Shown here piece by piece: positions 3,071-53,932 of a stretch of DNA of 64,000 bases. Source of the stretch: Candidatus Latescibacterota bacterium (GTDB taxonomy: Bacteria; Latescibacterota; UBA2968; GCA-2709665); assembly GCA_965219455.1 (NCBI GenBank), contig OZ244744.1, positions 2,624,001 through 2,688,000 on the forward strand, written 5' to 3'. The translations under genes were made by a program, and so were the position numbers. Each line of letters starts with the position of its first letter. The first letter of the stretch is position 1. The notes under the pieces were generated by a model. The model searched no databases. It was not told the origin of the DNA and saw only the letters and a list, made by a program, of their open reading frames with translations.

Positions 3071-4403
3071 ACACTTTCGAACGCTCTGCATCCTGAGGGT
3101 GGCCTTTCTGTGCGCCACGATCTGCGCCCTTGTGTTCGTCCTCTTTCAGACGTCGTACTACACCACCGTCTTCATCCTCGCCGGCATTGCGGTCTACCAG
3201 GCCTATGCCCTCATCCACTACGTGGAGCGCACGAACCGGGATCTCACCCGCTTTCTGCAGGCCGTCCGGTACGAAGACTTCTCCCAATCCTTCAGCGGCC
3301 GTGGACTCGGGTCCGCTTTCGACGACCTCAAGGAGGCGTTCAACGACGTGTTGAACGCTTTCCGGAGGACACGGGCGGAAAAAGAGGAAAACTTCCAGTA
3401 CCTCCAGACCGTGGTCCAACACGTGGGCGTGGGACTGGTCTGTTACGAACCCGACGGACGCATCGAACTGATGAACACCGCGGCCCAGCGCCTGCTTCGC
3501 AGACCCCATATCCACAATGTACACGAACTTGAACCGGTAAGTAAAACCCTCTCTGAAACATTGCTCGGCCTTCGCCCGGGCGACAGAACCCTGGTCAAAG
3601 TTCAGGACGAGGACGAACTTCTGCAGATCATCATCCACGGCACCGAGATTCGAATGCGGGGCGATACGTATATTCTGGCCTCCGTACAGGATATACAAAG
3701 CGAACTCGAGGAACAGGAAATAGAGGCGTGGCAGAAACTCATCCGCGTGCTGATCCACGAAATCATGAACTCGATCACTCCCATTTCGTCCCTCGCCTCA
3801 ACCGTGCGCGGCCATTTCCCCGAACCCGGACACCCCTCGTCGCTCGATCCCCAAACCCTGACAGACGTGCATACCGCCCTGCAGACCATCCAATCCCGCA
3901 GCGAAGGCCTGCAGCACTTTGTGGACACCTACCGCCAGCTGACGCGGATACCCCGTCCCGACTTCAAGATCTGTCCGGTCGCGAATCTCTTTAACCGCGT
4001 TGTGTCCCTCATGCAACCGGAATGCGACGGTAATCGCATCGCACTGCGCACTGAAGTCGATCCCGAGTCTCTCGAGGTCACCGCCGACCCCGACCTCATC
4101 GAGCAGGTGCTCATCAATCTTCTGCGCAACGCCATGCACGCGCTGGCCGGACGCGACGGGGCCCGCATCGACCTGGTTGCCCTTCTCGACCGGCGAGGGC
4201 GGGTACTCATCCGCGTGCGGGACAACGGACCGGGCATCCTCGAAGACGTGCAGGAGCGCATCTTCATACCGTTTTTCACGACCAGGCACGAAGGATCGGG
4301 TATCGGTCTGTCGCTGTGCCGCCAGATTATGCGCCAGCACCGCGGCGCCATCAGCGTTCAATCCACACCCGAAGAAGAAACCGTATTTACCCTCCGATTC
4401 TGA
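3060..4403 (+). CDS. Membrane sensor histidine kinase (NtrY-like, PAS + HATPase)
   Basis: Two N-terminal TM segments, HEIMNSITPI H-box, NLLRNA N-box, DNGPG, FIPFFTT, GSGIGL; overlaps regulator stop. Confidence 0.93.
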   Translation: MVYRHFRTLCILRVAFLCATICALVFVLFQTSYYTTVFILAGIAVYQAYALIHYVERTNRDLTRFLQAVRYEDFSQSFSGRGLGSAFDDLKEAFNDVLNAFRRTRAEKEENFQYLQTVVQHVGVGLVCYEPDGRIELMNTAAQRLLRRPHIHNVHELEPVSKTLSETLLGLRPGDRTLVKVQDEDELLQIIIHGTEIRMRGDTYILASVQDIQSELEEQEIEAWQKLIRVLIHEIMNSITPISSLASTVRGHFPEPGHPSSLDPQTLTDVHTALQTIQSRSEGLQHFVDTYRQLTRIPRPDFKICPVANLFNRVVSLMQPECDGNRIALRTEVDPESLEVTADPDLIEQVLINLLRNAMHALAGRDGARIDLVALLDRRGRVLIRVRDNGPGILEDVQERIFIPFFTTRHEGSGIGLSLCRQIMRQHRGAISVQSTPEEETVFTLRF

Positions 4404-4476
4404 TCTCCAGCCTGCCGGGTGGGAGAATTTTGTTGCATCTGAGTCAAGCTTCATGCTGAGAGCACTCAAGTGGCCT

Positions 4477-6015
4477 CTATCCCCAATCCTCCAGTATGGC
4501 CTTCGCGGCGTTGTGCCCCGGCGCCCCGGTCACCTCGCCGCCTGGATGGGTGCCCGCGCCGCAGAGATAGAGGTTTTCGATGGGCGTCGCGTAATGCGCC
4601 CATCCGCCAAGTGGCCGTTGCGCGAGGAACTGGTCCGGCACGATGTCCAGATGCCTGATATTGCCGTCGGTAAGGCCCACCCGGTCCTCCAGGTCATGCG
4701 GTGTGAATAGCGACCAGTCCACAAGAATGTCCCGGAGGTTCGGCGCATACACCGAGAGCGTATCGATCAGACGTTCTCCCACCTCCTCCCGTCGTTCGTC
4801 CCAGGTGCCGTCGCGCGGGCTCACGGGCGCATACAGGACCCAGACGGACATCACATGGTGGCCTTCCGGCGCCATCGTGTGGTCGTAGACCGATGGGATC
4901 TGCACTTCCATCACAGGTTCCATGGCGGGATCTCCACGCCGGGCGTCGTCCCAGGCGCGGGCGAAGTAGTCAATGGACGGGCAGATTTTAATCTCGGCCA
5001 TCCATCGCGGATCAACGTCCGATTCGCCCCTCGCGAAGTCCGGCAGACCCGCGAGCGCCGCGTGGAATTTCAGATAGGCCGTCCTGGTCTTCAGACGGCC
5101 CGCCCTGGCCAGGAATCGCGCATCCAGCGCCTCGGCCGGCAGCAGCTTCAGAAACGTGCGTTTCGGATCCGCGTTGGAGACCACGATCCGGCTGCGAATC
5201 TCCGTGCCGTCGGCAAGCGCCACACCACACGCGCTTCCGTTTCTGACCAGGATTCTTGACACCTCGGCGCCTGTCTGCAACACCGCTCCACGCGCCCTCG
5301 CCGCCCTCGCGAGGGCGTTGGCGATTCCGCCCATTCCCCCCTTCACAATGCCAATGTTCTCCGGCCGGCCGAACACGTTGCATTTGATATACGCATAACA
5401 CCACGCGCTGCCGGTCGCCGCGGGATCCCCCACGTCCTGGGCCTGGATGAACGCGCCCTGAGCCTCGTCGGACTCGAAGAAGTCGGTCACGATATCGGTC
5501 ATACTGGTCGTCAGCAGGCGGTCCAGAAGCGCCTCATCCGGCGTACCCCTCACCCGCGAGGCGATCTCGCTGACCGTCGGCGGCGGCGTCAGGAAATAGG
5601 GATAGATGATCCCGGCGGCGCGTTCCCAGAAGGAAAGCCATTCCGGATAGGCCTCCGCGTCCCTTTGCGAGAATCGGGCGAGTTCCGCCTGGCTGCGTTC
5701 CAGGTCGTCCCAGAGCCGGAGGGCGGAGCCGTCGGGGAAGGGCTGATACCGGGAGGGGTCCAGGTGATAGACGTCGAACCCGTGCTCTCGCAGGCCCAAC
5801 TCGTCGATCACCCGGTCCTGCAAAAGGTGGCAAATGTAGGAGCAGGACGAAAACCGGTAACCGGGAAAGAGTTCCTCGGTCGCACAGGCGCCCCCAAGGA
5901 GGTCCCGCCGTTCCAGTAACAACACATCCATTCCGGCATCCGCAAGGTAGGACGCCGCAACCAGCCCGTTATGCCCGCCTCCCAGGATCACCGCATCGCA
6001 ATCTACCATGGCCAT
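4477..6015 (-). CDS. Phytoene dehydrogenase-like FAD-dependent oxidoreductase
   Basis: ILGGGHNGLVAA dinucleotide motif, LGGAC, LYLCGAGTHPGGEVTGAPGHNAA; start placed at ATG 6015. Confidence 0.88.
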   Translation of the reverse strand: MAMVDCDAVILGGGHNGLVAASYLADAGMDVLLLERRDLLGGACATEELFPGYRFSSCSYICHLLQDRVIDELGLREHGFDVYHLDPSRYQPFPDGSALRLWDDLERSQAELARFSQRDAEAYPEWLSFWERAAGIIYPYFLTPPPTVSEIASRVRGTPDEALLDRLLTTSMTDIVTDFFESDEAQGAFIQAQDVGDPAATGSAWCYAYIKCNVFGRPENIGIVKGGMGGIANALARAARARGAVLQTGAEVSRILVRNGSACGVALADGTEIRSRIVVSNADPKRTFLKLLPAEALDARFLARAGRLKTRTAYLKFHAALAGLPDFARGESDVDPRWMAEIKICPSIDYFARAWDDARRGDPAMEPVMEVQIPSVYDHTMAPEGHHVMSVWVLYAPVSPRDGTWDERREEVGERLIDTLSVYAPNLRDILVDWSLFTPHDLEDRVGLTDGNIRHLDIVPDQFLAQRPLGGWAHYATPIENLYLCGAGTHPGGEVTGAPGHNAAKAILEDWG

Positions 6016-6227
6016 GGTTAAGTTCTCCGCTATAGGTGTGGCGCTGTCATCAGTCAGTGATCGGCTCACTGATCGGTTAATTCATGCCGGGAGAGGTGAG
6101 ACGGGAGACGTAAGAGGGCCGCACCACCCGACCATGGATTCGCGGTGTCGTATTTGCAAGGATTGTGGTGTTTGGTTTTTCGGTTCAAGCTGAACGCTGA
6201 TGGCTGACAGCTGACATTCTTGTTCTA

Positions 6228-6548
6228 TTATCGAACACCCCAACCATTCTCCAGAAGCCACGCCCTGACCTGCCGCCGGCAATCTCCCTGCAATTCAATC
6301 GTATCCCCGCGCATCGTCCCGCCCGTACCACACGCTCCCCGCAATGCCCGCGCCAAGTCCTTCATATCTCCCTTCGCCAGCACCAGACCTCCGGCCAGCG
6401 TTACCACCTTGCCCCGCTTCCGTTTCTCCAGCGAAATCCGAATCCGCTGCTCCTCCGGCGCGCGGGAGACCAGCACTTCTACGTCAATGTCAGGCACATC
6501 GTCGGAAACAAACGCCCATCCCTCTCCATAAGTTCGCTTAACCGCCAT
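6228..6548 (-). CDS. SUI1/YciH-like translation initiation factor
   Basis: EKRKRGKVVT, CGTGGT, IELQGD motifs. Confidence 0.85.
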   Translation of the reverse strand: MAVKRTYGEGWAFVSDDVPDIDVEVLVSRAPEEQRIRISLEKRKRGKVVTLAGGLVLAKGDMKDLARALRGACGTGGTMRGDTIELQGDCRRQVRAWLLENGWGVR

Positions 6549-6599
6549 ATTTCTCCCCTAAAGACAGCCTGAAAGAACAACCATGCGTCTCTTTAATGT

Positions 6600-7796
6600 T
6601 CACTTTCTCTTTGTGCCATCGCCAAAATCGGGCACTGCCGTTAACGCGCCTCCATTCATCGCGGACTCGTGCGCCACCAGCCCCGGAAGCAGGTACCGCG
6701 CCGCCTGCCACACATTATTCGGCGGCGTTTCGCCCGTCGCACACGCCGTCACGAAATCGTGTACCAGGAACTGATGGGCCCCTTTGTGCCCGTTTCCCAG
6801 GCCGATAAACTCCCTCGGCAGCAGGTGTACCGGATGGACCCGCGACACCCCCTGGTGCGTGCCGTCATCTCCCGTGACCGCGCCCATCGGGTCGTCGGCC
6901 GGACCGGCCGGCACGCCTTCACAAGACAATTCCGCAGTCAAATCCACGCACGTTTTCCGGTCCCTGGTGATCCAGATCTGTCCGCCCACCTGCTCCTCGT
7001 ATCCGGCATCGGTTCCATAAAGACTCATTCCCACCGTACCGGGATGCCCGATCCGCCGGAACTCGTTGAAGCGCGCCATACTACCGTCCGACATTCTGCA
7101 CATCATCGTCTGGTTGCTGAACGGGTTCTTCCAGACATTGTCTTCACGCGCATATAGATTATCTTCATGGCGATCCACGAACCCCATTCCGCTCACGTGC
7201 GTGGCATGCGCCCCGGTGACCGACACGATCATACTCGTGGAATGGGTGGGATAATAGAGCGGCGGCGCCCCGTAATACCGCTTCCATTTCTCACCGTGCC
7301 GCCACTGCGACACCGCATACAGTCCGTGAGAATAATCGTGGTAATACTCCGCCTCCCCGTAAACGACATGTCCGAAATCTCCCTTCTGAAAACGGTCCCG
7401 GCAGTAGATCGTACACGGGTAATAGTAACTCGTCTCGCCAATCATATAGATCAAACCGGTCTCCTCCACGGCCTGTACAAGCTCGGAGACCTCATCCGGG
7501 CTCACCGCCGACGGGACCGCCGAATACACGTGTTTGCCGCTGCGCAACGCCTGGACGGCCTGCGGCCCGTGCAGATGATGCTGGGTGATAATCGCAATCG
7601 CGTCAACCTCGGATCCGCACAGTGCATCCAATGACGGATATGTATCCGAAACGTCGAAACGCGTCGATTTCTCCCGCAGTTTCTCCGCGTCCAGATCGCA
7701 CAAAACCAGGTGGTCGACATCCGGATGCGCTTTGAACAACGGGATGAACGAATTCGCGAACGCTCCGGTGCCGCAAATTCCTATACGGATACCCAT
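6600..7796 (-). CDS. Gfo/Idh/MocA family oxidoreductase
   Basis: IGICGTG Rossmann motif, ALRSGKHVYSAVP, GEAEYYHD. Confidence 0.88.
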   Translation of the reverse strand: MGIRIGICGTGAFANSFIPLFKAHPDVDHLVLCDLDAEKLREKSTRFDVSDTYPSLDALCGSEVDAIAIITQHHLHGPQAVQALRSGKHVYSAVPSAVSPDEVSELVQAVEETGLIYMIGETSYYYPCTIYCRDRFQKGDFGHVVYGEAEYYHDYSHGLYAVSQWRHGEKWKRYYGAPPLYYPTHSTSMIVSVTGAHATHVSGMGFVDRHEDNLYAREDNVWKNPFSNQTMMCRMSDGSMARFNEFRRIGHPGTVGMSLYGTDAGYEEQVGGQIWITRDRKTCVDLTAELSCEGVPAGPADDPMGAVTGDDGTHQGVSRVHPVHLLPREFIGLGNGHKGAHQFLVHDFVTACATGETPPNNVWQAARYLLPGLVAHESAMNGGALTAVPDFGDGTKRK

Positions 7797-7809
7797 GAAA
7801 ACCCCATAA

Positions 7810-8360
7810 GTAGCGGTCAGCTATCAGCCATTAGCTATCAGCTTGAAGCAAAACCGAAAGACAAACAGCAATCAGCGGTCAGCGGTCAGCGGTCAGCCAA
7901 AAGAAATAGGCGAGAACCAGATTCAAAATCCACTTCTCCCCAAATTCCCTGCCTTCGGCGGGACAGAGAATCCTCACACGAAGACACAAAGGGAAAACCG
8001 GAAATCGCGACAAGGCGGGCAACCACAAGGGTTGCCCCTACAAATTCAACAACGTCGCAAAGCATCCAGCGATAGGCGGTACGATTGCAAATCCACGCGG
8101 CGGTCCATGGGGGTATACCTCACGTCCGACCGGTGGCGTGGGGGGTTTTTCCACGCTAATCCGTCCGGCATTGAAGCACGTGGGTATCTAATCGCACGAA
8201 GGGCACAATCGCTCGTCTACGCCACTAAAGAGATTCGTGGAAAAACCGGCCCCGCGCCGAGCGGCGCCGTTCTTTTTGGTCCTTTCTCTTGGCGTACAAG
8301 AAAAAGGACAAAGAAAAATAAGAATTGGAGGGAAGTGGTGAAGATTCTGATTTTCCCCAA
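7810..8360. repeat. Composite repeat cluster: 7-mer (TCAGCGG)n, GTAG-type REP and a long structured element related to 52860-53203
   Basis: TCAGCGG x3 at 7872; GGGCAACCACAAGGGTTGCCCCTACA at ~8017-8042; 7812-7962 is an inverted homolog of ~53090-53186; ~8200-8355 is a direct homolog of ~52985-53143. Confidence 0.75.
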
Positions 8361-8572
8361 ATCGCCTTTGGTTTCCCAATGAATACTAAACCCATTACGA
8401 TAAGAAATACGCGAGACACCTAAAGCGCAAGCCCTAAACCTGACCTCTACGTGAGCCCGTCGACCAGCACGGTCGGCGGCAAATAAGGAAAGCGGCTCTT
8501 TTCAGCATACGCGATGGATCTTGAATACCGACATCACATTTCGTAAATTGACACCATCGAAAGGAGACCCCC

Positions 8573-10897
8573 ATGGACCTATCCATGTTCAAGGACGACG
8601 CCATTGAGTCCGAATGGACCCTGTCCGATGCCGAACAGGGTGAACAGATCAATCTCCCAATGGAAGCCGGCGACTGGATCCGGGCGAACGAGATCCGCGC
8701 CGAGATCTACCTGCCTGAAGGGGTAGACGACCAGATCTACTGCACCCTCACGTCAGGACATCGCACCGAAGGCATGAGCCAGGACGACGGCTATTGGTTC
8801 AACGCCATCGTCTCCCCCCGCGGCGGCAACGTCTGGCGGGGCTGGCGCGAGTTCCGTTTCCCCGCAGAGTGTTTCTATACCGCCGGAATCCCGACCGCGG
8901 GGTGGGGCGATATGTCCTCGGGAGAGGTCCGTCTACCGCCCGGAAGCCGGATCCGAAACGTCCGCCTGGTCCGGCGCCGGATCGTCCAGGGTCCGCGCAT
9001 GACCGATGAGGCCCTCATCGCCGCGGTCGATCTGAGCCATCCGGGACTCGAAACCGCGGCTCGGGCAACCGGCAGCGAAGCCCGGCTGTCGGCAATCGCG
9101 GCGCACTTCCGCTCCAGCGCCTTCGACCGGCGGCACACGACACCCGATCCCTCGCCCGATGCCGACCTTGAAGAGGCGGACCGTATCCTGGCCGGTTACA
9201 TCATGGACCACCACTGGCCCGACGGCGTGGACTGGGACGCCAATCCCTACGGATATATCGAGTGGTCCATCATCATCCACGCTTTCTACTATTTCAAATC
9301 ACTTGAACTCGCCTGGGAAAAGACCCGGGACCCGAAATACGTGAAAGGTATCGAAGCCATCCTGTGCGACTGGATGCGCAAAACTCCCTTGCCCGTCGGC
9401 GTACGTGCCGGCGGCCTGGCCTGGGGGCACTCTCTGATTGTGAGCATGCGGGGGTTCAACACGCTCGTGGACGCATTCACCGTGCTTTGCGACTGTCCGG
9501 AAACCGAAGACCGGACGATCCTGGACCTGCTCAAATCCGTCTACGAGCACGCCGTCTACCTCCTGAAATTCGAGTCCTTCCCACCCTCCAACAAAACCAT
9601 ATCGGAAGGCAGGTCTCTGCTCGCCACGGCCTGCTCCTTCCCCGAATTTCAAGAGGCCGAAGCCTGGTACGACGCAGCCAGCCGGCGTCTTATGGACGAC
9701 ATGAACATCCAGGTGATGCCGGACGGGGCCTCGTACGAACTCACCCCGGGCTATCAGATCTCAATCGCCTCGTGGTTCCTCGATGCCTATAAAGTGGCCG
9801 GGAAGTTCGGCCGGTCACTGGATCCGGAACTGGAAGCCGGCATCCGGCGCATGTACGACTGGTGCGTCTCCATCAACCGGCCCGACTTCTCCTGCCCCTC
9901 CATTTCCGACGCCGGCAGCCTGGACGGAAAATACGGAGGCGCGCTCTCCGGCCCGGGCGCCATTCTCAACGACGAAGAAGCCACCTGGATTGCCAGCGAT
10001 GGTGAAAAAGGCAGCGCGCCGGCCTACACCTCGATCGCCCGCCGGGACTCCGGTTACTTCGTCATGCGCAGCGGCTGGGATCGAGACGCCCGCTACCTCC
10101 TGTTCGAAGGAGGCCCGTTCGGTCGTTTTCACCAGCACGAAGACATGCTCTCCTTCGATCTCTACGCCCACGGCCTGCCCTTCATCGTGGACCCCGGTAT
10201 TACGTCGTACTACCCGAATGCGTGGACCTCGTTCTACAGGACAACCGAAGCGCACAACACGGTACTGGTGGACGGCTGCGGCCAGAACCGCCGGGCCCGT
10301 ACCATCCCGGAATGGGTTGAGTCCGCCCGGGACAAGACCGTGTGGCGCTCGGATGACCGCTCCGACGTCGCCATCGCCACATACGATGCCGGGTATGCCG
10401 GGTTGGACGCGTCCGTCGCCCACCGCCGGATTGTCATGTTCGTCAAGCCCGATTACTTCCTGATTTTCGATGAACTCACGGGCGAAGGCCGCCGCACCTA
10501 TGAAGCCCTCTTCCACTTCATGCCCTACCGGGTGCTGATCGACCCGGACACCCGCGCCGTCCGTACGGGCCGGATGAATCCGCCCAATCTGGAAATCCTT
10601 CCCCTCGTCAAAATGACGCCCCACGTCGTCTGCGGCCAGAACGATCCTGTACAGGGTTGGCTCGCGATCGGCGGGCAGGATGTTCCGGCGCCGGTCGTCG
10701 TCTACAAGAAACGCACGGCGCTGCCCTTCCGGACCGGCTACGCCCTCGTGCCTTTCACGGACGGCGTCAGCGCAGGCGTCACTCCGCGGATCACCCGCCG
10801 GGGCGAGGCCTGGAACGTACGCCTCGCCCATCCCGACGGCAAAGTGGATCGGATCCGGATGGACTGGTCCGACAGCAACGGACCGGTACTGATCTAG
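8573..10897 (+). CDS. Heparinase II/III-family polysaccharide lyase-like protein
   Basis: QVMPDGASYELTPGYQ, DSGYFVMRSGW, HQHEDMLSF, VDPG, FYRTTEAHNTVLVDG; AAGGAG RBS. Confidence 0.85.
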   Translation: MDLSMFKDDAIESEWTLSDAEQGEQINLPMEAGDWIRANEIRAEIYLPEGVDDQIYCTLTSGHRTEGMSQDDGYWFNAIVSPRGGNVWRGWREFRFPAECFYTAGIPTAGWGDMSSGEVRLPPGSRIRNVRLVRRRIVQGPRMTDEALIAAVDLSHPGLETAARATGSEARLSAIAAHFRSSAFDRRHTTPDPSPDADLEEADRILAGYIMDHHWPDGVDWDANPYGYIEWSIIIHAFYYFKSLELAWEKTRDPKYVKGIEAILCDWMRKTPLPVGVRAGGLAWGHSLIVSMRGFNTLVDAFTVLCDCPETEDRTILDLLKSVYEHAVYLLKFESFPPSNKTISEGRSLLATACSFPEFQEAEAWYDAASRRLMDDMNIQVMPDGASYELTPGYQISIASWFLDAYKVAGKFGRSLDPELEAGIRRMYDWCVSINRPDFSCPSISDAGSLDGKYGGALSGPGAILNDEEATWIASDGEKGSAPAYTSIARRDSGYFVMRSGWDRDARYLLFEGGPFGRFHQHEDMLSFDLYAHGLPFIVDPGITSYYPNAWTSFYRTTEAHNTVLVDGCGQNRRARTIPEWVESARDKTVWRSDDRSDVAIATYDAGYAGLDASVAHRRIVMFVKPDYFLIFDELTGEGRRTYEALFHFMPYRVLIDPDTRAVRTGRMNPPNLEILPLVKMTPHVVCGQNDPVQGWLAIGGQDVPAPVVVYKKRTALPFRTGYALVPFTDGVSAGVTPRITRRGEAWNVRLAHPDGKVDRIRMDWSDSNGPVLI

Positions 10898-17404: not shown

Positions 17405-17612
17405 TGTAGGGGCGACCGGCCGGTCGCCCCTACAAAACGGAAACACCTTTGAATTAACATCGACTGTCCGCATCGCTGACGGCTGTCTGTTGGACGCTAA
17501 AGACAGGGCGGTTCGCGAACCGCCCCTACAAAAACCAGACATCCGTAAATTGCCATCGCTGGGCCGTATTGCCGACCGCTGTAAGCTGATTGCTGACCGC
17601 CGACAGCTATCT
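17405..17612. repeat. Two GTAG-type REP palindromes plus GCTGAYN heptamer repeat
   Basis: TGTAGGGGCGACCGGCCGGTCGCCCCTACA (~17406), AGGGCGGTTCGCGAACCGCCCCTACA (~17504), heptamers 17571-17610. Confidence 0.8.
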
Positions 17613-18059
17613 GCTGCCCGCTATCCCTTGAGGCGCAGAAGGATCGCCTTCAATCCATTCTTCTCCGTCCGTCCAGACTTCTTTTTTCCAGATGGGCACC
17701 GTTTCCTTCAGTCGGTCAATCGCGTAGTGACAGGCCGCCAGGGCCGCTTTCCGGTGCGGCGCGGAAATCGCAATCAACACACTCGTCTCGCCGATTTCCA
17801 ATCGACCCATCCGATGCAGCATGCCCACCCGGTCCACGTCCCACTTCTCCTTCACCTCCCGGCCAATCTCCTCCATCTTCTTCTCGGCCATGTCTTTATA
17901 GGCATCGTACACCAGATACCTGGTCGGGCGGCCCATCGCATGGTCTCGCACCACCCCGGCGAACGTCGCCACCGCGCCATCCGAATCTCTCAGCACAGCG
18001 TCGTGCAGCGCGTCGGCCGGTATGGGGTCTTCCAGGATACGGTACAGATCACCGGACAT
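17607..18059 (-). CDS. moaE: Molybdopterin synthase catalytic subunit
   Basis: GAVATFAGVVRD, HRMGRLEIGE, HRKAA, LKETVPIWKKE. Confidence 0.93.
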   Translation of the reverse strand: MSGDLYRILEDPIPADALHDAVLRDSDGAVATFAGVVRDHAMGRPTRYLVYDAYKDMAEKKMEEIGREVKEKWDVDRVGMLHRMGRLEIGETSVLIAISAPHRKAALAACHYAIDRLKETVPIWKKEVWTDGEEWIEGDPSAPQGIAGSR

Positions 18060-47887: not shown

Positions 47888-48277
47888 ATGAGCAGGTCGA
47901 AAGCCCGGCTGCGCCGTGAGGTTCAGAATCTTCGACGGACCGGATCGTTGTTCCGGGGCCGCTGGTTGCACGTCCGTGCGTGTAAATCCGCAGAAGATCG
48001 TATCTTTATCTCCGTACGGAAGCGGTTTGGAAAGGCAGTTGCACGAAATCTCGCGCGGCGGCGAATTCGTGCTATCTGCCGGGAAATGGCGCCGCACCAC
48101 CGCACGGGTCATATGGCGCCGCACCACCGCACGGGTCATTTGGTCATTATTTCCGTTGGCGACCGGTCAGACTCTGCGGGGTTCGGGGATCTCCGTACGG
48201 ATTTGATATCTGCGTTCGTAAATCTGGGTCTTCTCCGCAGGTCGGCCATCCCGCCGGTCGGGTTGCTTCCTCGTTGA
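47888..48277 (+). CDS. rnpA: RNase P protein component
   Basis: ISVRKRFGKAVARNLARRRIR RNR-like motif; follows rpmH. Confidence 0.85.
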   Translation: MSRSKARLRREVQNLRRTGSLFRGRWLHVRACKSAEDRIFISVRKRFGKAVARNLARRRIRAICREMAPHHRTGHMAPHHRTGHLVIISVGDRSDSAGFGDLRTDLISAFVNLGLLRRSAIPPVGLLPR

Positions 48278-50397: not shown

Positions 50398-51753
50398 ATG
50401 CGACCTTCGGATCGCGATACCATTGTCGCAATCGCCACCGGCCCCGGCGAGGCAGCGATAGGCATCGTGCGTCTTACAGGTCCGGAGGCAGTAGGAATTG
50501 CCTCCGGTTTTTTTTGTGGATCACTCGAATTGAGCCGCATTGAGGACCGCCGCCTGACGTACGGCCGGTTTGTCGTCGAAGACCAGGACCTGGATGAGGT
50601 CCTGGTCTCCGTCATGCGGGCATCCCGGTCGTTTACGGGCGAAGATACGGTCGAGTTCAACTGCCACGGGGGCCCTCTCCTTCTGCAACGAGCGATGGAG
50701 GGCCTCGTGTCGGCGGGTGCCCGGCCAGCTGAACCCGGTGAATTCACCCGGCGGGCATTTCTCAATGGCCGGATCGATCTCACCCAGGCGGAGGCGATCG
50801 CGGATATGATCGCCGCCCGGGCGGACCGGGGTCTTCGGTCCGCCTACTTCCGGTTGCGCGGTGGTTTGAGGTCAAGGTTCGAGGATCTGGCGGAAGTCCT
50901 GCGGGATTCGCTGACGTTGATCGAGGCCGGATTGGATTTTTACGAAGACGCGGGCGTCGAACAGGACGCCATCCGTCCGTCGCTCACGCGGGCGGCGGAA
51001 GAAATCGAGCGCCTGATCGCCTCCTATCGGCACGGGAAAGTCATACGCGAGGGCGTCCTCGTTGCGCTGGCGGGCCCTCCGAACGCGGGCAAATCGAGCC
51101 TCCTTAACGGACTGCTGGAAGAAGACCGCGCGATCGTGTCGCCGGTGTCCGGAACCACACGTGATACGATTGAAGAGTCCATTACCCTTGATGGGATTCG
51201 CGTAACGCTGGTCGACACGGCCGGTATCGTGGAGCCGCGTGACGCCATTGAGCGCGAGGGCGCCCGGAGGTCACGGGAAGTGATTACCCGGGCCGCGCTT
51301 GTGCTGTTGATCGTCGACGCGTCCGTCCCCGCTGCCGCGGGTTTGTATGACATGGTCGCGGGCGTGGATCCTGTCAACGTGCTTCTCGTGATGAACAAGA
51401 AGGATCTCGGCCTTCATGGCGATTGGCTGGGTGACCACGCGTTCCGGGGACTCTCCATCTCTGCCCTCACGGGGGAAGGTCTTGAGAGTCTCAGGAAGCA
51501 CATCCGCGGGCGAGTCGTGTCGGTCTCGGATCCCGAACCCGGTGTGGTAACGCACGCGCGCCACGTGGAGGCGTTGCGGCGGTCGGGGGACGCCCTTGGG
51601 AGGGCGACGGGTGCGCTGGACGTCGGCCTTCCGCGAGAAGTCGTCGCGTTGGAATTGGGGGAAGCAGCCGACGCGCTGGCCGAAATTGTCGGCGAAACGA
51701 CGTCGGAGGAGATCCTGGACCGGATTTTCAGTACTTTCTGTATCGGCAAATAA
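50398..51753 (+). CDS. mnmE: tRNA modification GTPase
   Basis: DTIVAIAT, SFTGED, GEFTRRAFLNG, GPPNAGKSS, GTTRD, DTAG, FCIGK. Confidence 0.96.
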   Translation: MRPSDRDTIVAIATGPGEAAIGIVRLTGPEAVGIASGFFCGSLELSRIEDRRLTYGRFVVEDQDLDEVLVSVMRASRSFTGEDTVEFNCHGGPLLLQRAMEGLVSAGARPAEPGEFTRRAFLNGRIDLTQAEAIADMIAARADRGLRSAYFRLRGGLRSRFEDLAEVLRDSLTLIEAGLDFYEDAGVEQDAIRPSLTRAAEEIERLIASYRHGKVIREGVLVALAGPPNAGKSSLLNGLLEEDRAIVSPVSGTTRDTIEESITLDGIRVTLVDTAGIVEPRDAIEREGARRSREVITRAALVLLIVDASVPAAAGLYDMVAGVDPVNVLLVMNKKDLGLHGDWLGDHAFRGLSISALTGEGLESLRKHIRGRVVSVSDPEPGVVTHARHVEALRRSGDALGRATGALDVGLPREVVALELGEAADALAEIVGETTSEEILDRIFSTFCIGK

Positions 51754-52126
51754 CCGAAAGACGGTTGAGGGGAGAAGGGAAACGGAAGACGTGAAAGGGA
51801 AGGGTGGGTTGTGCTCGGGGCCGGTTTTCCGCGAACTACTCTTACAACGGAAACCAGGGATTGAGCCCTGCCAAGTTTTCAGCACTCCCCATGCGAAGGC
51901 GCTGGACGGAATAACGCGGAAAAGACCCTTCGCCACCGCCGGACGGGCGAGAGGAAGACCCCGAAGGGCCGCCGCCTTGATTGGCGGTTATACCGCCTTT
52001 GGCTGTATGATTGCGCCGTTTTTGCATTTGTAGGGGCGACTTCAAAGTTGCCCACATCATGGCGTTGACAACGGCCATTGACAGCGCTGGGCCATATCGC
52101 CAACCGCTTCAAGCTGTCTGCTGATC

Positions 52127-52856
52127 GTGCGCCGTGAAAAGGCGCGGATCTTCAGTGGGTGAAAGTCCCACCCGACAAGGGTTGCTTCAGTCGGTAGCAA
52201 CCGGAGCGGGGACGTAGGTAACGAAATCTCCGAAGCCTCCGGTGTAAAGGGTCGCAAGGCGACTCCGCGAGTATGCAGGCCGTAACGCGCAGTGAACGCT
52301 GAGCAAGCCTCGAAAACTGCAATGCGGGAGCCGACCCGATGGTTAGCCGGGGAAGGCCGCCGCCGTTGGAAAAAAAAAGACAGCAACGCGTGCACCCAAC
52401 GGTCCCGCCGGGGTACTGGCGACGGCATGTATATAAAGGGAGGTCCGACGCAACACGGGAAGCCCCAGCGGTGGTGGTGAGACACCAACCGGAAACCCGC
52501 GAGGGACAGGCCGGGCCGAATGGGGTGGCGGACAGGCTCGTAGTACCGGTGATGCCGGGTAACGCCGGCGGAGGAAAGGGGCCTGACTTCGGACACGCTT
52601 GGGAAGGGAACAACGGATTGGAGAGTGGCGCAAGCCTATTACCTCCAAAGAAAGACCAGGCGATCCGGGAACAAGCTTGGCCTTCAGGTGAAGTTGCCTG
52701 GACATAGGAGGTGGCGTGTGCCTGAAGGCGACGTTCGTCGGAGAGCCGGATGCGGGAAATCCGCATGTCCGGTTCGACGAGCGGGATGTGGAAACGGGGC
52801 ACGGAGAGGCTATTAATAGGCCGCTCCTAAACTACCGCGCCACATCCCGACTCTAC
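52127..52856 (+). mobile_element. ORF-less group II intron (IIB-like)
   Basis: 5' GTGCG; domain V GAGCCGGATGCGGGAAATCCGCATGTCCGGTTC (52743-52775) with AGC triad; domain VI ending CTCTAC; domain III GTAGTACCGGTGATGCCGGGTAACGCCGGCGGAGGAAAGG; no RT ORF. Confidence 0.92.
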
Positions 52857-52859
52857 GCC

Positions 52860-53203
52860 GACCACTATTCGCTCCTCGTTCACAGGAAACCACGCCGGTA
52901 TCTGACGCGATACCATTCGAGAGGATCTCCAGAGCAGAGCGCGCGGTTCCGTCCCGCACCGAACACGGATATCCACTGTGGCCGGTAGGGCAGCAGATCC
53001 GGTGCATGCCGTAAGGAAATTCGCGCTGTGCATATGGCAGGCCCCGCGCCTAGCGGCGACTTTTGGTTCCTTTTGGTCGCTTCAAAAGGAACCCGCCTGA
53101 GGCAGGAAATTTGGGGAGATGTGGAATTGGAATCTGGTTTTCGCCTTTTGCTTCAAGCTAACGGCTGATGGCTGACCGCTAACAGCCAATCGCCAATCGC
53201 TGA
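52860..53203. repeat. Structured dispersed element plus heptamer repeats, homologous to 7810-8360
   Basis: GGCCCCGCGCC(T/G)AGCGGCG...TTTTGGT, hairpin TTCCTTTTG/CAAAAGGAA, TTTTGCTTCAAGCT followed by GCTGAYN repeats. Confidence 0.7.
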
Positions 53204-53219
53204 TGTTCCACGTGAAACA
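53204..53219. promoter_or_regulatory. parS centromere site
   Basis: TGTTCCACGTGAAACA vs consensus TGTTNCACGTGAAACA, ~8 kb from oriC. Confidence 0.9.
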
Positions 53220-53275: not shown

Positions 53276-53932
53276 TTGACCGATCAGGAATTTCTGGCCG
53301 CCGCGAAAGCGTTGTCGGTCGATCTGTCGGAAGTGCAGGCCGCGCAGTTTTTTCGCTATGAGGCGCTGCTCAGGTCATGGTCAGAAAGGGTGCGACTGGT
53401 TTCCCGAGGGGACCGGGACAAAATCAGAGAGCACCACTTTATTGACAGTTTGCGGGTGGTGCCCTTTCTGCCCAGGGGGCCCATTTCGCTTTTGGACCTG
53501 GGATCGGGTGCGGGTTTTCCGGGCGTACCGGTCAAGATCGCCCGCCCGGAAGTGAATGTCGTGCTTCTTGAGTCGGCCCGAATGAAGGGTCTTTTCCTGA
53601 ACCACCTGGCGGGGGAACTCGAACTGGACGGGCTGTGCGTTGTAACCGAGCGGGCGGAGGCCGCCCGCGAGCGTGTCGAGCAACGGGGAGGGTACGATAT
53701 TGTAACGGCGCGCGCGGTCGGCTCCCTGCCGATGCTCTGGCGCCTGTCGTCAGGATTGCTAAAACGAGAGGGTGAGTTGTTCGCACTGAAGGGTCCCGGC
53801 GCCGTCCGGGAAGCAGAGGAATTCGGACCGGATGGCCCCGCCGTGTCCATGGAAACCATAGCGCCCGGATCCCGGCACAGGAACACAATTCTTGTCAGGG
53901 TCAGCGCCCGGCGAAATTCCGGGCCGCCCTGA
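53276..53932 (+). CDS. rsmG: 16S rRNA m7G527 methyltransferase
   Basis: HFIDSL, LDLGSGAGFPG, RAE, TARAV, LKG; GGAGG RBS with TTG start. Confidence 0.93.
   Translation: MTDQEFLAAAKALSVDLSEVQAAQFFRYEALLRSWSERVRLVSRGDRDKIREHHFIDSLRVVPFLPRGPISLLDLGSGAGFPGVPVKIARPEVNVVLLESARMKGLFLNHLAGELELDGLCVVTERAEAARERVEQRGGYDIVTARAVGSLPMLWRLSSGLLKREGELFALKGPGAVREAEEFGPDGPAVSMETIAPGSRHRNTILVRVSARRNSGPP

Follow-up and report, generated by a model that had tools for sequence, protein, structure and literature searches.

How does an intron that encodes no protein of its own come to lie exactly on the boundary between two units of a short tandem repeat? The question is raised by a locus of Candidatus Latescibacterota bacterium, whose genome (assembly GCA_965219455.1; G000 below) is a single contig, OZ244744.1, of 5.84 Mb. 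The window analysed here is the 64,000-nt stretch from 2,624,001 to 2,688,000 of this contig, and coordinates are window positions unless marked C1 or given in Mb. At 52127-52856, on the plus strand, lies a group II intron of 730 nt without an open reading frame (ORF), designated copy W, which directly follows heptamers of the GCTGAYN type. A first-pass annotation of the window had proposed that the exon-binding site 1 (EBS1) of this intron is tuned to such heptamers, so that the element would home, with tolerance for wobble pairs, into a repeat family offering abundant and safe sites. From the comparisons reported below we consider it likely that W is a non-autonomous member of a multi-copy family that homes by base pairing into array units.

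Results

Copy W and its exon-binding site 1

Copy W begins with GTGCG (52127-52131) and ends with CTAC (52853-52856), in agreement with the group II GUGYG/AY rule, and 14 sibling copies have the same ends. The Rfam model RF02003 (group-II-D1D4-4) matches 52153-52290 over its full length of 1-138 (106.6 bits, cut-off 49), as expected of a group II domain 1, and RF00029 (domains 5 and 6) matches 52741-52856 (47.6 bits, cut-off 40). Alignment to the latter places domain 5, with its AGC triad, at 52742-52776 and domain 6 at 52779-52856, where the helix, paired by hand, leaves a bulged branch-point A at 52850, 7 nt before the CUAC end. Domain 4 (D4) is represented by a stub of 157 nt (52584-52740). 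At 730 nt the intron is too short for a reverse transcriptase (RT) gene, and the RT/maturase ORF that an autonomous element carries in domain 4 is absent from W.

The final 7 nt of the 5' exon, the intron-binding site 1 (IBS1), are the heptamer GCTGATC at 52120-52126. It is preceded by the heptamer GCTGTCT (52113-52119) and by the leader ATCGCCAACCGCTTCAA (52096-52112), a diverged version of the recurrent ATCGCYAACCGGTT... leader known from other arrays. Degenerate heptamers, GCCGACC ACTATTC GCTCCTC, continue into the 3' exon (52857-52877).

Within domain 1, GGTTAGC at 52341-52347 occupies most of a 9-nt loop (52339-52347; ATGGTTAGC, also given as AUGGUUAGC) closed by the stem CCCG (52335-52338)/CGGG (52348-52351). 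As had been read from the sequence in the first-pass annotation, GGUUAGC pairs with GCUGAUC at 7/7 positions with two G-U pairs, and a hypothetical GCUGACC would leave only one; the chance of a random 7-nt match including G-U is about 0.375^7 = 1e-3. The loop is the most variable part of domain 1, and its changes from copy to copy are matched by changes in the last 7 nt of the 5' exon. Thus in G000 the loop CAUGGAU goes with ATCCATG, UGACGGC with GCCGTCA or GCTGTCA, UAUCAGC with GCTGATA or GTTGATA, UGAUAGC with GCTGTTA, and GGUUAGC with GCTGATC. A total of 74 stretches was collected from relatives, and the 56 copies with a readable loop gave 27 distinct loop/IBS1 combinations, in which on average 6.15 of 7 positions were paired, against 3.88 +/- 0.28 when partners were shuffled (0/5000 shuffles as high). 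Furthermore, in an alignment of 20 distinct copies from 9 genomes (A1), each of the 7 IBS1-EBS1 pairs varies in both partners, with pairing in 89.3% of cells; shifting the partners by 1-3 columns lowered pairing to 27-48%, and 0/500 shuffles matched the observed score. The RNAalifold consensus, computed without an EBS1 constraint, also presents the 9 nt as a terminal hairpin loop. This was the structural test named beforehand for the proposed loop, and covariation, which is decisive, together with the terminal-loop fold establishes that 52341-52347 is EBS1.

Insertion sites in the host genome

BLAST of the intron against its own genome returned 15 copies including W (the others being A to N), as well as two short 5' fragments. 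The ORF-less copies are W (730 nt), J (758 nt) and N (757 nt); eleven others are full-length at 1948-1982 nt, and D is a 5' fragment. Each empty site was rebuilt and compared, in exact phase, with six heptamers of the sense (GCTGANN) or the antisense (GCNNTCA) type, and the scores were given genome-wide empirical p values. Sense arrays were found for I (24/30, p = 1.4e-5), N (22/30, p = 3e-5), W (21/30, p = 4e-5) and J (19/30, p = 8e-5), and antisense arrays for F (24/30, p = 1.1e-5), L (21/30, p = 4e-5) and D (15/15, scored on its 5' side only). Seven of the 15 copies (D, F, L, W, I, J and N; four sense, three antisense) therefore stand exactly at heptamer boundaries of GCTGAYN arrays. Copies W, I and N, as well as locus L201 of the related genome G004, each lie directly after the second heptamer behind a ATCGCYAACCGGTT-type leader, which also precedes many intron-free arrays; the remaining array insertions follow the third or fourth unit behind other leaders, or are antisense. 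Several of the rebuilt empty sites are spanned, in a crude six-frame map, by ORFs of at least 100 aa that are possibly spurious, and we make no claim that all sites are intergenic.

Another seven copies (A, B, C, E, G, H and M) differ from one another at 0-6 of 1979 nt, and all of them lie in a nonamer repeat, (ATCCTGTNN)x2-3 ending in ATCCATG, with insertion between ATCCATG and T. The genome holds 31 sites of the form ATCCTG...ATCCATG, of which 7 are occupied by the intron and 24 are empty. Sites of this nonamer family (e.g., C1:567241, 3368176 and 4837002, none inside the window) often continue on the 3' side with TAAGTTTGGG, and the repeat is preceded by a T-rich leader like that of the heptamer arrays and sometimes by a heptamer array.

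The heptamer arrays

To be counted in a strict census an array needed at least 3 consecutive units with at least 4/5 matches to GCTGA, at least 2 of them perfect. By this definition G000 contains 138 arrays with 565 units, amounting to 3,955 bp or 0.068% of the genome; none appeared in 1 Mb of sequence simulated with a first-order Markov model. The window itself holds arrays of the (GCTGAYN)x3-8 family at 6188-6216, 7817-7897 (minus strand), 17567-17621 and 53160-53205. Within the second of these, 7872-7897 consists of the unit TCAGCGG x3.7, or GCTGACC on the minus strand, and GCTGACC is also present at about 17592 and about 53171, so that all the occurrences cited by the first-pass annotation were found. 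T-rich array leaders recur, for example ggttttcgccttttgcttcaa, which belongs to the intron-free array at 53160-53205, and atcgccaaccggtttt.

Many arrays end 15-100 nt ahead of a co-oriented start codon. For 52/138 of them a co-oriented ORF of at least 120 aa begins no more than 100 nt downstream, compared with 10% for random positions and 13/138 for the divergent orientation. Array midpoints fall inside crude ORFs of at least 120 aa in 45/138 cases, while such ORFs cover 90% of the genome, which makes the arrays mostly non-coding. Four GCTGA units at 2-nt spacing were found in 14/14 other genomes of the genus and in 10/16 genomes of a genus in another family of the same order; a reversed control pattern matched in one genome only, 5 times altogether. 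A DNA search for the intron in the 16 genomes of that other-family genus gave 0/16. The arrays thus predate and outnumber the intron and are, as far as can be seen, host features and not mobile elements; possibly they are 5'-leader or promoter-proximal elements. A G-rich motif, gagggggccggggggagaggtc, recurs beside heptamer arrays of G000 (e.g., near C1:969059, 1814159 and 2394582).

Further exon-binding sites and the match to array units

A second variable stretch of the intron, AAAA[NNNN]AA at 52313-52322, covaries with exon positions -14 to -11, the EBS2/exon pairs being AGGU/ACCU, CGUU/AACG, CUGC/GCAG and AGCU/AGCU. Across the alignment 71% of cells pair and 4/4 pairs vary on both sides; in W itself 3/4 pair. 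From this covariation in relatives we infer that a core of about 4 nt at 52317-52320, CUGC within the single-stranded CUCG-AAAACUGCAA-UGCGGG, is EBS2, and that the first 4 nt of the GCTGTCT heptamer are its partner, IBS2. In the branch formed by W, N, I and K this canonical register gives 3/4 pairs with array sequence. An alternative pairing, between intron CUGCAA and leader UUGURG (-19 to -14), suits I and N but misfits W, which reads UUCAAG. Additionally, intron position 23 (U at 52149 in W) is A with T at exon +1 in 28 copies, and U with A at +1 in 11 or with G in 5, so that 44/50 junctions are consistent, with 6 exceptions; this two-state co-variation makes the position a candidate, and probable, EBS3. 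A1 showed no delta-delta' covariation when the base 5' of EBS1 was compared with the position that faces position 23 in the internal loop.

The EBS1 variants complement the commonest array units, as the first-pass annotation would lead one to expect. In copies I and K, EBS1 is the Watson-Crick complement of GCTGATA, the commonest unit of all (70/565, rank 1). The letters of EBS1 in F and J are TGATAGC, the rank-1 sense 7-mer in the +2 frame (77), and those in D and L are TGACGGC, the rank-2 sense 7-mer in that frame (60). Being identical to sense 7-mers, these EBS1 sequences find their partners on the antisense strand, and the EBS2 of the same copies, AGCU, suits the antisense unit TCAGCn. In the related genome G001, eight ORF-less copies carry an EBS1 that complements GCTGACA, rank 3 among the array units of G000. 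The EBS1 of W and N departs from this pattern in that its Watson-Crick partner, GCTAACC, is rare (3 units), while it is compatible by wobble pairing with 131/565 units. The closest ORF-less relative of W (L077 of genome G011, D4 stub 97% identical) has UGUCAGC as its EBS1. The wobble tolerance proposed at the outset would thus account for the W/N variant, and drift from UGUCAGC could equally do so.

Targets in related genomes

The intron family is present in 13/14 other genomes of the genus. In G004, intron 5' ends L201, L202 and L203 follow 2, 3 and 4 in-phase heptamers, respectively, and in G005, L211 follows 3. With the seven copies of G000, these four junctions in two other genomes answer the concern that further copies might sit in unrelated sequence.

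A wider tally of the genus, made with a 5'-exon-only array test (threshold at least 12/15, genome-wide frequency 5.7e-5), comprised 90 junctions with a 5' end from 91 sources (L104 has none; L114 and L214 may be false 5' ends), and 80 loci from other phyla, for which identities only were recorded, stand outside these flank counts. The commonest target in relatives is TAACCTTGATTCGNNN, directly followed by the intron (L093-L101, L108 and L109 in G003 and G009; L204-L210 in G004). At these sites only about 17 nt are conserved upstream and at least 150 nt downstream, so that the intron lies at the edge of another repeated element; within that element a second target-like motif follows about 50 nt further on. 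The eight ORF-less copies of G001 (L061-L068; 761 nt in seven and 1059 nt in one), whose EBS1 is UGUCAGC, occupy a single conserved repeat, ...TGAAAATAAAYGGAAGCTGACA before the intron and ACTGCTCTTCCTGACCACTGGCCACTG after it, the 3' part of which contains CCACTGN heptamers.

The ORF-less lineage and public reads

Nine copies in G000 have an intact ORF for a 441-aa RT/maturase with the YADD motif; that of copy I is broken, and that of K may start at GTG. The protein matches RVT_1 (1.7e-36), GIIM (1.4e-13) and TIGR04416 (356.9 bits, cut-off 300); Pfam found only RVT_1 and GIIM in it, and no DNA-binding/endonuclease (En) domain. Its closest solved proteins are group IIC reverse transcriptases (6ar1, 1.1e-53; 7uim, 3.1e-50), followed by the 562-aa maturase/RT 6me0 and then by LtrA.

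The D4 stub of W has no similarity in the full-length copies, and it is 73-99% identical among ORF-less copies of at least seven genomes. Near-identical ORF-less sets at different sites comprise 8 copies in G001 (761 nt) and 8 in G003 (756 nt). The shared stub and the many sites together identify one old ORF-less lineage that has spread and been retargeted. It is plausible, judging from these sequences, that sibling reverse transcriptases mobilise the ORF-less copies in trans.

Public sequencing runs contain both forms of the W site. A contig of 301 nt in run X1 links 52125 with 52856, with a 2-nt ambiguity and 113 nt on its shorter side, which fits the junction 52126/52857 exactly and confirms the exon boundary; the contig represents an empty site if X1 is DNA and spliced exons if it is RNA. 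Run X3 contains the occupied form, with a 3.6-kb contig that runs across the 5' junction without a single difference. Moreover, in two RNA runs of one study, the metatranscriptomes X15 and X16, contigs join the 3' end of the intron to its 5' end (52856/52127, a step back of 730 nt, with a 2-nt ambiguity); the listing for X1 and X3 contains no joint of this kind. A full-length intron circle would fit this head-to-tail joint, as would tandem DNA copies in some strain. X15 and X16 cover the intron only and not the flanks of W, and they are uninformative on transcription at the W locus because the intron is multi-copy. At L083 of G004 (C52, at the contig end), an intron 5' end stands right behind the last 55 nt (domain 6, CTAC) of another copy; the two may form a head-to-tail pair, or the arrangement may result from assembly at a repeat.

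Surroundings of the locus

Copy W lies between two genes on the plus strand, a placement that rests on Pfam hits to both: an mnmE/trmE-type GTPase gene on the 5' side (50398-51753; MnmE_helical 1.3e-46, TrmE_N 4.5e-39) and rsmG/gidB on the 3' side (53276-53932; GidB 5.7e-38). In the gap between intron and rsmG, summed contig depth at 53028-53121 rises to about 5100 in X1 and X3, compared with 20-40 in unique flanks, which marks this segment as another multi-copy element. Several contigs skip 52953-53019. Elsewhere in the window, 48086-48143 is a 27-nt unit x2.1 at 96% identity.

Discussion

On the reading favoured here, the family would choose its DNA targets through a 7-nt EBS1, an EBS2 core of about 4 nt and a probable EBS3. 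Within the genus several sublineages have arisen, distinguished mostly by these few nucleotides. In one of them EBS1, and in the antisense branch also EBS2, is complementary to the (GCTGAYN)n unit on either strand, and its members insert exactly at unit boundaries; a second matches the nonamer array ending in ATCCATG. The several near-identical sites in each array, multiplied by more than 100 arrays, therefore amount to an ample stock of non-coding homing sites. Copy W itself would be spliced and mobilised by the En-less RT/maturase of its full-length siblings, and cDNA synthesis may be primed by replication-fork DNA, as in other En-less introns.

Several results weigh against this reading, or limit it. 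When an EBS1-compatible site is defined by Watson-Crick plus G-U pairing and a purine at +1, the genome offers 3,427-8,819 such sites per variant, and those in arrays number 147/8669, 95/3427, 142/4651 and 128/8819 (1.5-3.1%). This is 11-23x the genome share of arrays extended by 14 nt (0.13%), yet far below the 7/8 observed. With EBS2 required as well, the antisense branch improves to 21/191 and 45/343 predicted sites in arrays (11-13%), while the branch of W, N, I and K has only 2/590 and 1/221, its EBS2 CUGC being mismatched to the array GCUG. N (5/7) and J (6/7) pair imperfectly with their own exons, and K, at 12/30, fails the array test. No replication strand bias of the kind that fork priming might leave was seen, 8-9/15 copies being co-directional on an irregular cumulative GC skew curve with its minimum at about 3.53 Mb and a local maximum at about 5.5 Mb. 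Finally, heptamer arrays account for 10 of the 90 junctions of the genus, next to 15 in the nonamer repeat, 28 of the TAACCT..ATTCG/ATTCA type and 37 others (among them J and N, which pass the two-sided test only, and the eight G001 copies). Array homing is thus one specificity among several in a family that often retargets. Accordingly, two parts of the original proposal need to be narrowed: homing into heptamer arrays stands, although it is not exclusive, given the seven nonamer copies, the failure of K and the relatives that lie mostly elsewhere; and tuning of EBS1 is borne out by the unit match, while its pairing is by itself too unspecific to produce the concentration in arrays. With more than 97% of compatible sites outside arrays, extra recognition and/or selection against insertions elsewhere must add to EBS1, and the location of W, I, N and L201 behind the second heptamer of the same leader type points to further recognition. 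The arrays may be safe, tolerated sites; they are enriched just upstream of co-oriented genes.

Selection could also be invoked alone, in that the intron might insert at any EBS-compatible site, genic copies being purged and copies in intergenic arrays persisting. The excess of compatible sites outside arrays, from which pairing alone cannot give 7/8, speaks for this explanation, as does the scarcity of array midpoints in ORFs, and purifying selection has been raised for intergenic intron locations (Mohr et al. 2010, PMC2882425). However, about 10% of the genome is non-coding on the crude map, against 0.07% for strict arrays, and survival in any intergenic DNA would not yield 7/8 copies in arrays, in phase, with EBS1 variants equal to units of rank 1, 2 and 3 on either strand. 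The nonamer lineage, with 7/31 matching sites occupied, argues likewise. We therefore regard survivorship as the sole cause as improbable.

It is very unlikely that W is an immobile remnant of a single old insertion and that the other array copies arose by recombination between arrays or by segmental duplication. The lack of an RT gene in W, the reduction of D to a 5' fragment and the imperfect pairing of N and J with their exons would all suit a relic; furthermore D, K and one fragment share their flanks with loci of G013 (L090, L087 and L092, of which L090 has the flank of D), so some copies are old. Against this, the flanks of the array-borne copies differ beyond the arrays, the preceding units are different and both orientations occur; EBS1 varies between copies, tracking the exon of each; public runs show the W site in an occupied and in an exactly empty form; Rfam finds an intact ribozyme core in W; and the ORF-less siblings of G001 and G003 form sets of 8 + 8 near-identical copies at different sites.

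That the RT/maturase or an array-bound host factor recognises protein or DNA structure and directs insertion, pairing being secondary, has hardly any probability: some group II intron proteins do read a few flanking positions, and W, I, N and L201 share their place behind the same leader type (ATCGCYAACCGGTT...), but the UUGURG leader of I and N can pair with intron CUGCAA, so that the leader effect may also be RNA pairing, the other insertions follow third or fourth units behind other leaders or are antisense, and the protein has no DNA-binding/endonuclease domain by Pfam.

A literature search, in which subscription journals were thinly covered and supplements excluded, found no report of group II introns homing into tandem heptamer arrays. 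In their 2015 review, Zimmerly and Semper (PMC4424553) list only three kinds of target for bacterial group II introns, namely unique homing sites, attC sites and terminators. The nearest parallel is the family of Thermosynechococcus elongatus, for which Mohr, Ghanem and Lambowitz (2010, PMC2882425) report that targets diverged, that ORF-less copies appear to be mobilised in trans and that other mobile DNA is a place of insertion. There, as here, one intron has given rise to many close copies whose specificities came to differ by changes in EBS; ORF-less derivatives occur beside ORF-bearing "driver" copies, or in greater number than these, and are apparently mobilised in trans; and insertion is preferentially outside genes, into repeated or non-essential DNA. 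The two differ in that the targets in T. elongatus are introns and insertion elements, and here are 7- and 9-nt tandem units on both strands, entered at unit boundaries; also, mobility there was shown by assay and here is proposed from sequence comparison. The T. elongatus intron protein belongs to an endonuclease-bearing lineage, unlike the En-less protein of G000. Array homing would thus work like the T. elongatus family, the novelty apparently lying in the use of host tandem-array units, on both strands, as sites.

Like class C (IIC) introns, the present family is En-less and exploits a recurring multi-copy non-coding motif and not one unique homing site, and the nearest solved proteins of its RT are IIC enzymes. 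IIC introns recognise a stem-loop motif and a short IBS1, without EBS2. In contrast, the G000 family has a 7-nt EBS1 together with EBS2, and its 5' exons are tandem heptamers, not hairpins. No plus-strand terminator-like hairpin was found beside the W insertion site, the nearest being at 51708-51729, about 400 nt upstream. Membership in class C is therefore ruled out by the EBS2 covariation and by the lack of an adjoining plus-strand terminator-like hairpin.

RmInt1 and its relatives home into insertion sequences, and archaeal introns into other introns (PMC4424553, PMC4181065 and PMC4615759). These systems resemble the present one in being En-less, in maintaining their supply of sites through multi-copy mobile DNA and in diverging in target against site saturation; they differ in that their targets are single sites inside mobile elements, whereas the arrays here are host tandem repeats. 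An RmInt1-type target is represented among the relatives by TAACCTTGATTCGNNN, which borders a repeated element at least 150 nt long. Intergenic repeat families also serve as landing sites for mobile elements associated with repetitive extragenic palindromic sequences (REPs), and one table gives 2/9 copies of a Pseudomonas putida group II intron as lying at REPs (Tobes and Pareja 2006, PMC1525189). REPs are, however, palindromic and mainly targets of DNA transposases, and the table passage does not deal with complementarity between EBS and unit or with phase.

Implications

We tentatively suggest that the intron family and the host arrays form a coupled system. Arrays of 7- and 9-nt units, placed just upstream of genes and conserved in at least two families of the order, would serve as a renewable, phase-defined homing reservoir, EBS sequences would track unit frequencies on both strands, and the old ORF-less lineage, driven by the reverse transcriptases of its siblings, would resemble a short interspersed nuclear element (SINE). 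If the arrays are transcribed 5' leaders, a sense copy such as W would share its transcript with the gene downstream and splicing would be obligatory; the expression of array-linked genes would in that case respond to intron gain and loss and to splicing. The arrays are in themselves an undescribed repeat family that extends across the order beside gene starts.

Group II introns are a model for RNA-DNA site choice and for the multiplication of introns without death of the host. To the routes by which such elements reach many sites this family would add a further one, a 7-nt guide that fits, on either strand, the repeated unit of a tandem array of the host, and its natural EBS1 and EBS2 variants with their matching exons amount to a ready-made retargeting experiment. 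Furthermore, the ORF-less lineage, together with the many intact RT genes of its siblings, may stand as a second example from nature of group II introns that behave like SINEs and are mobilised in trans.

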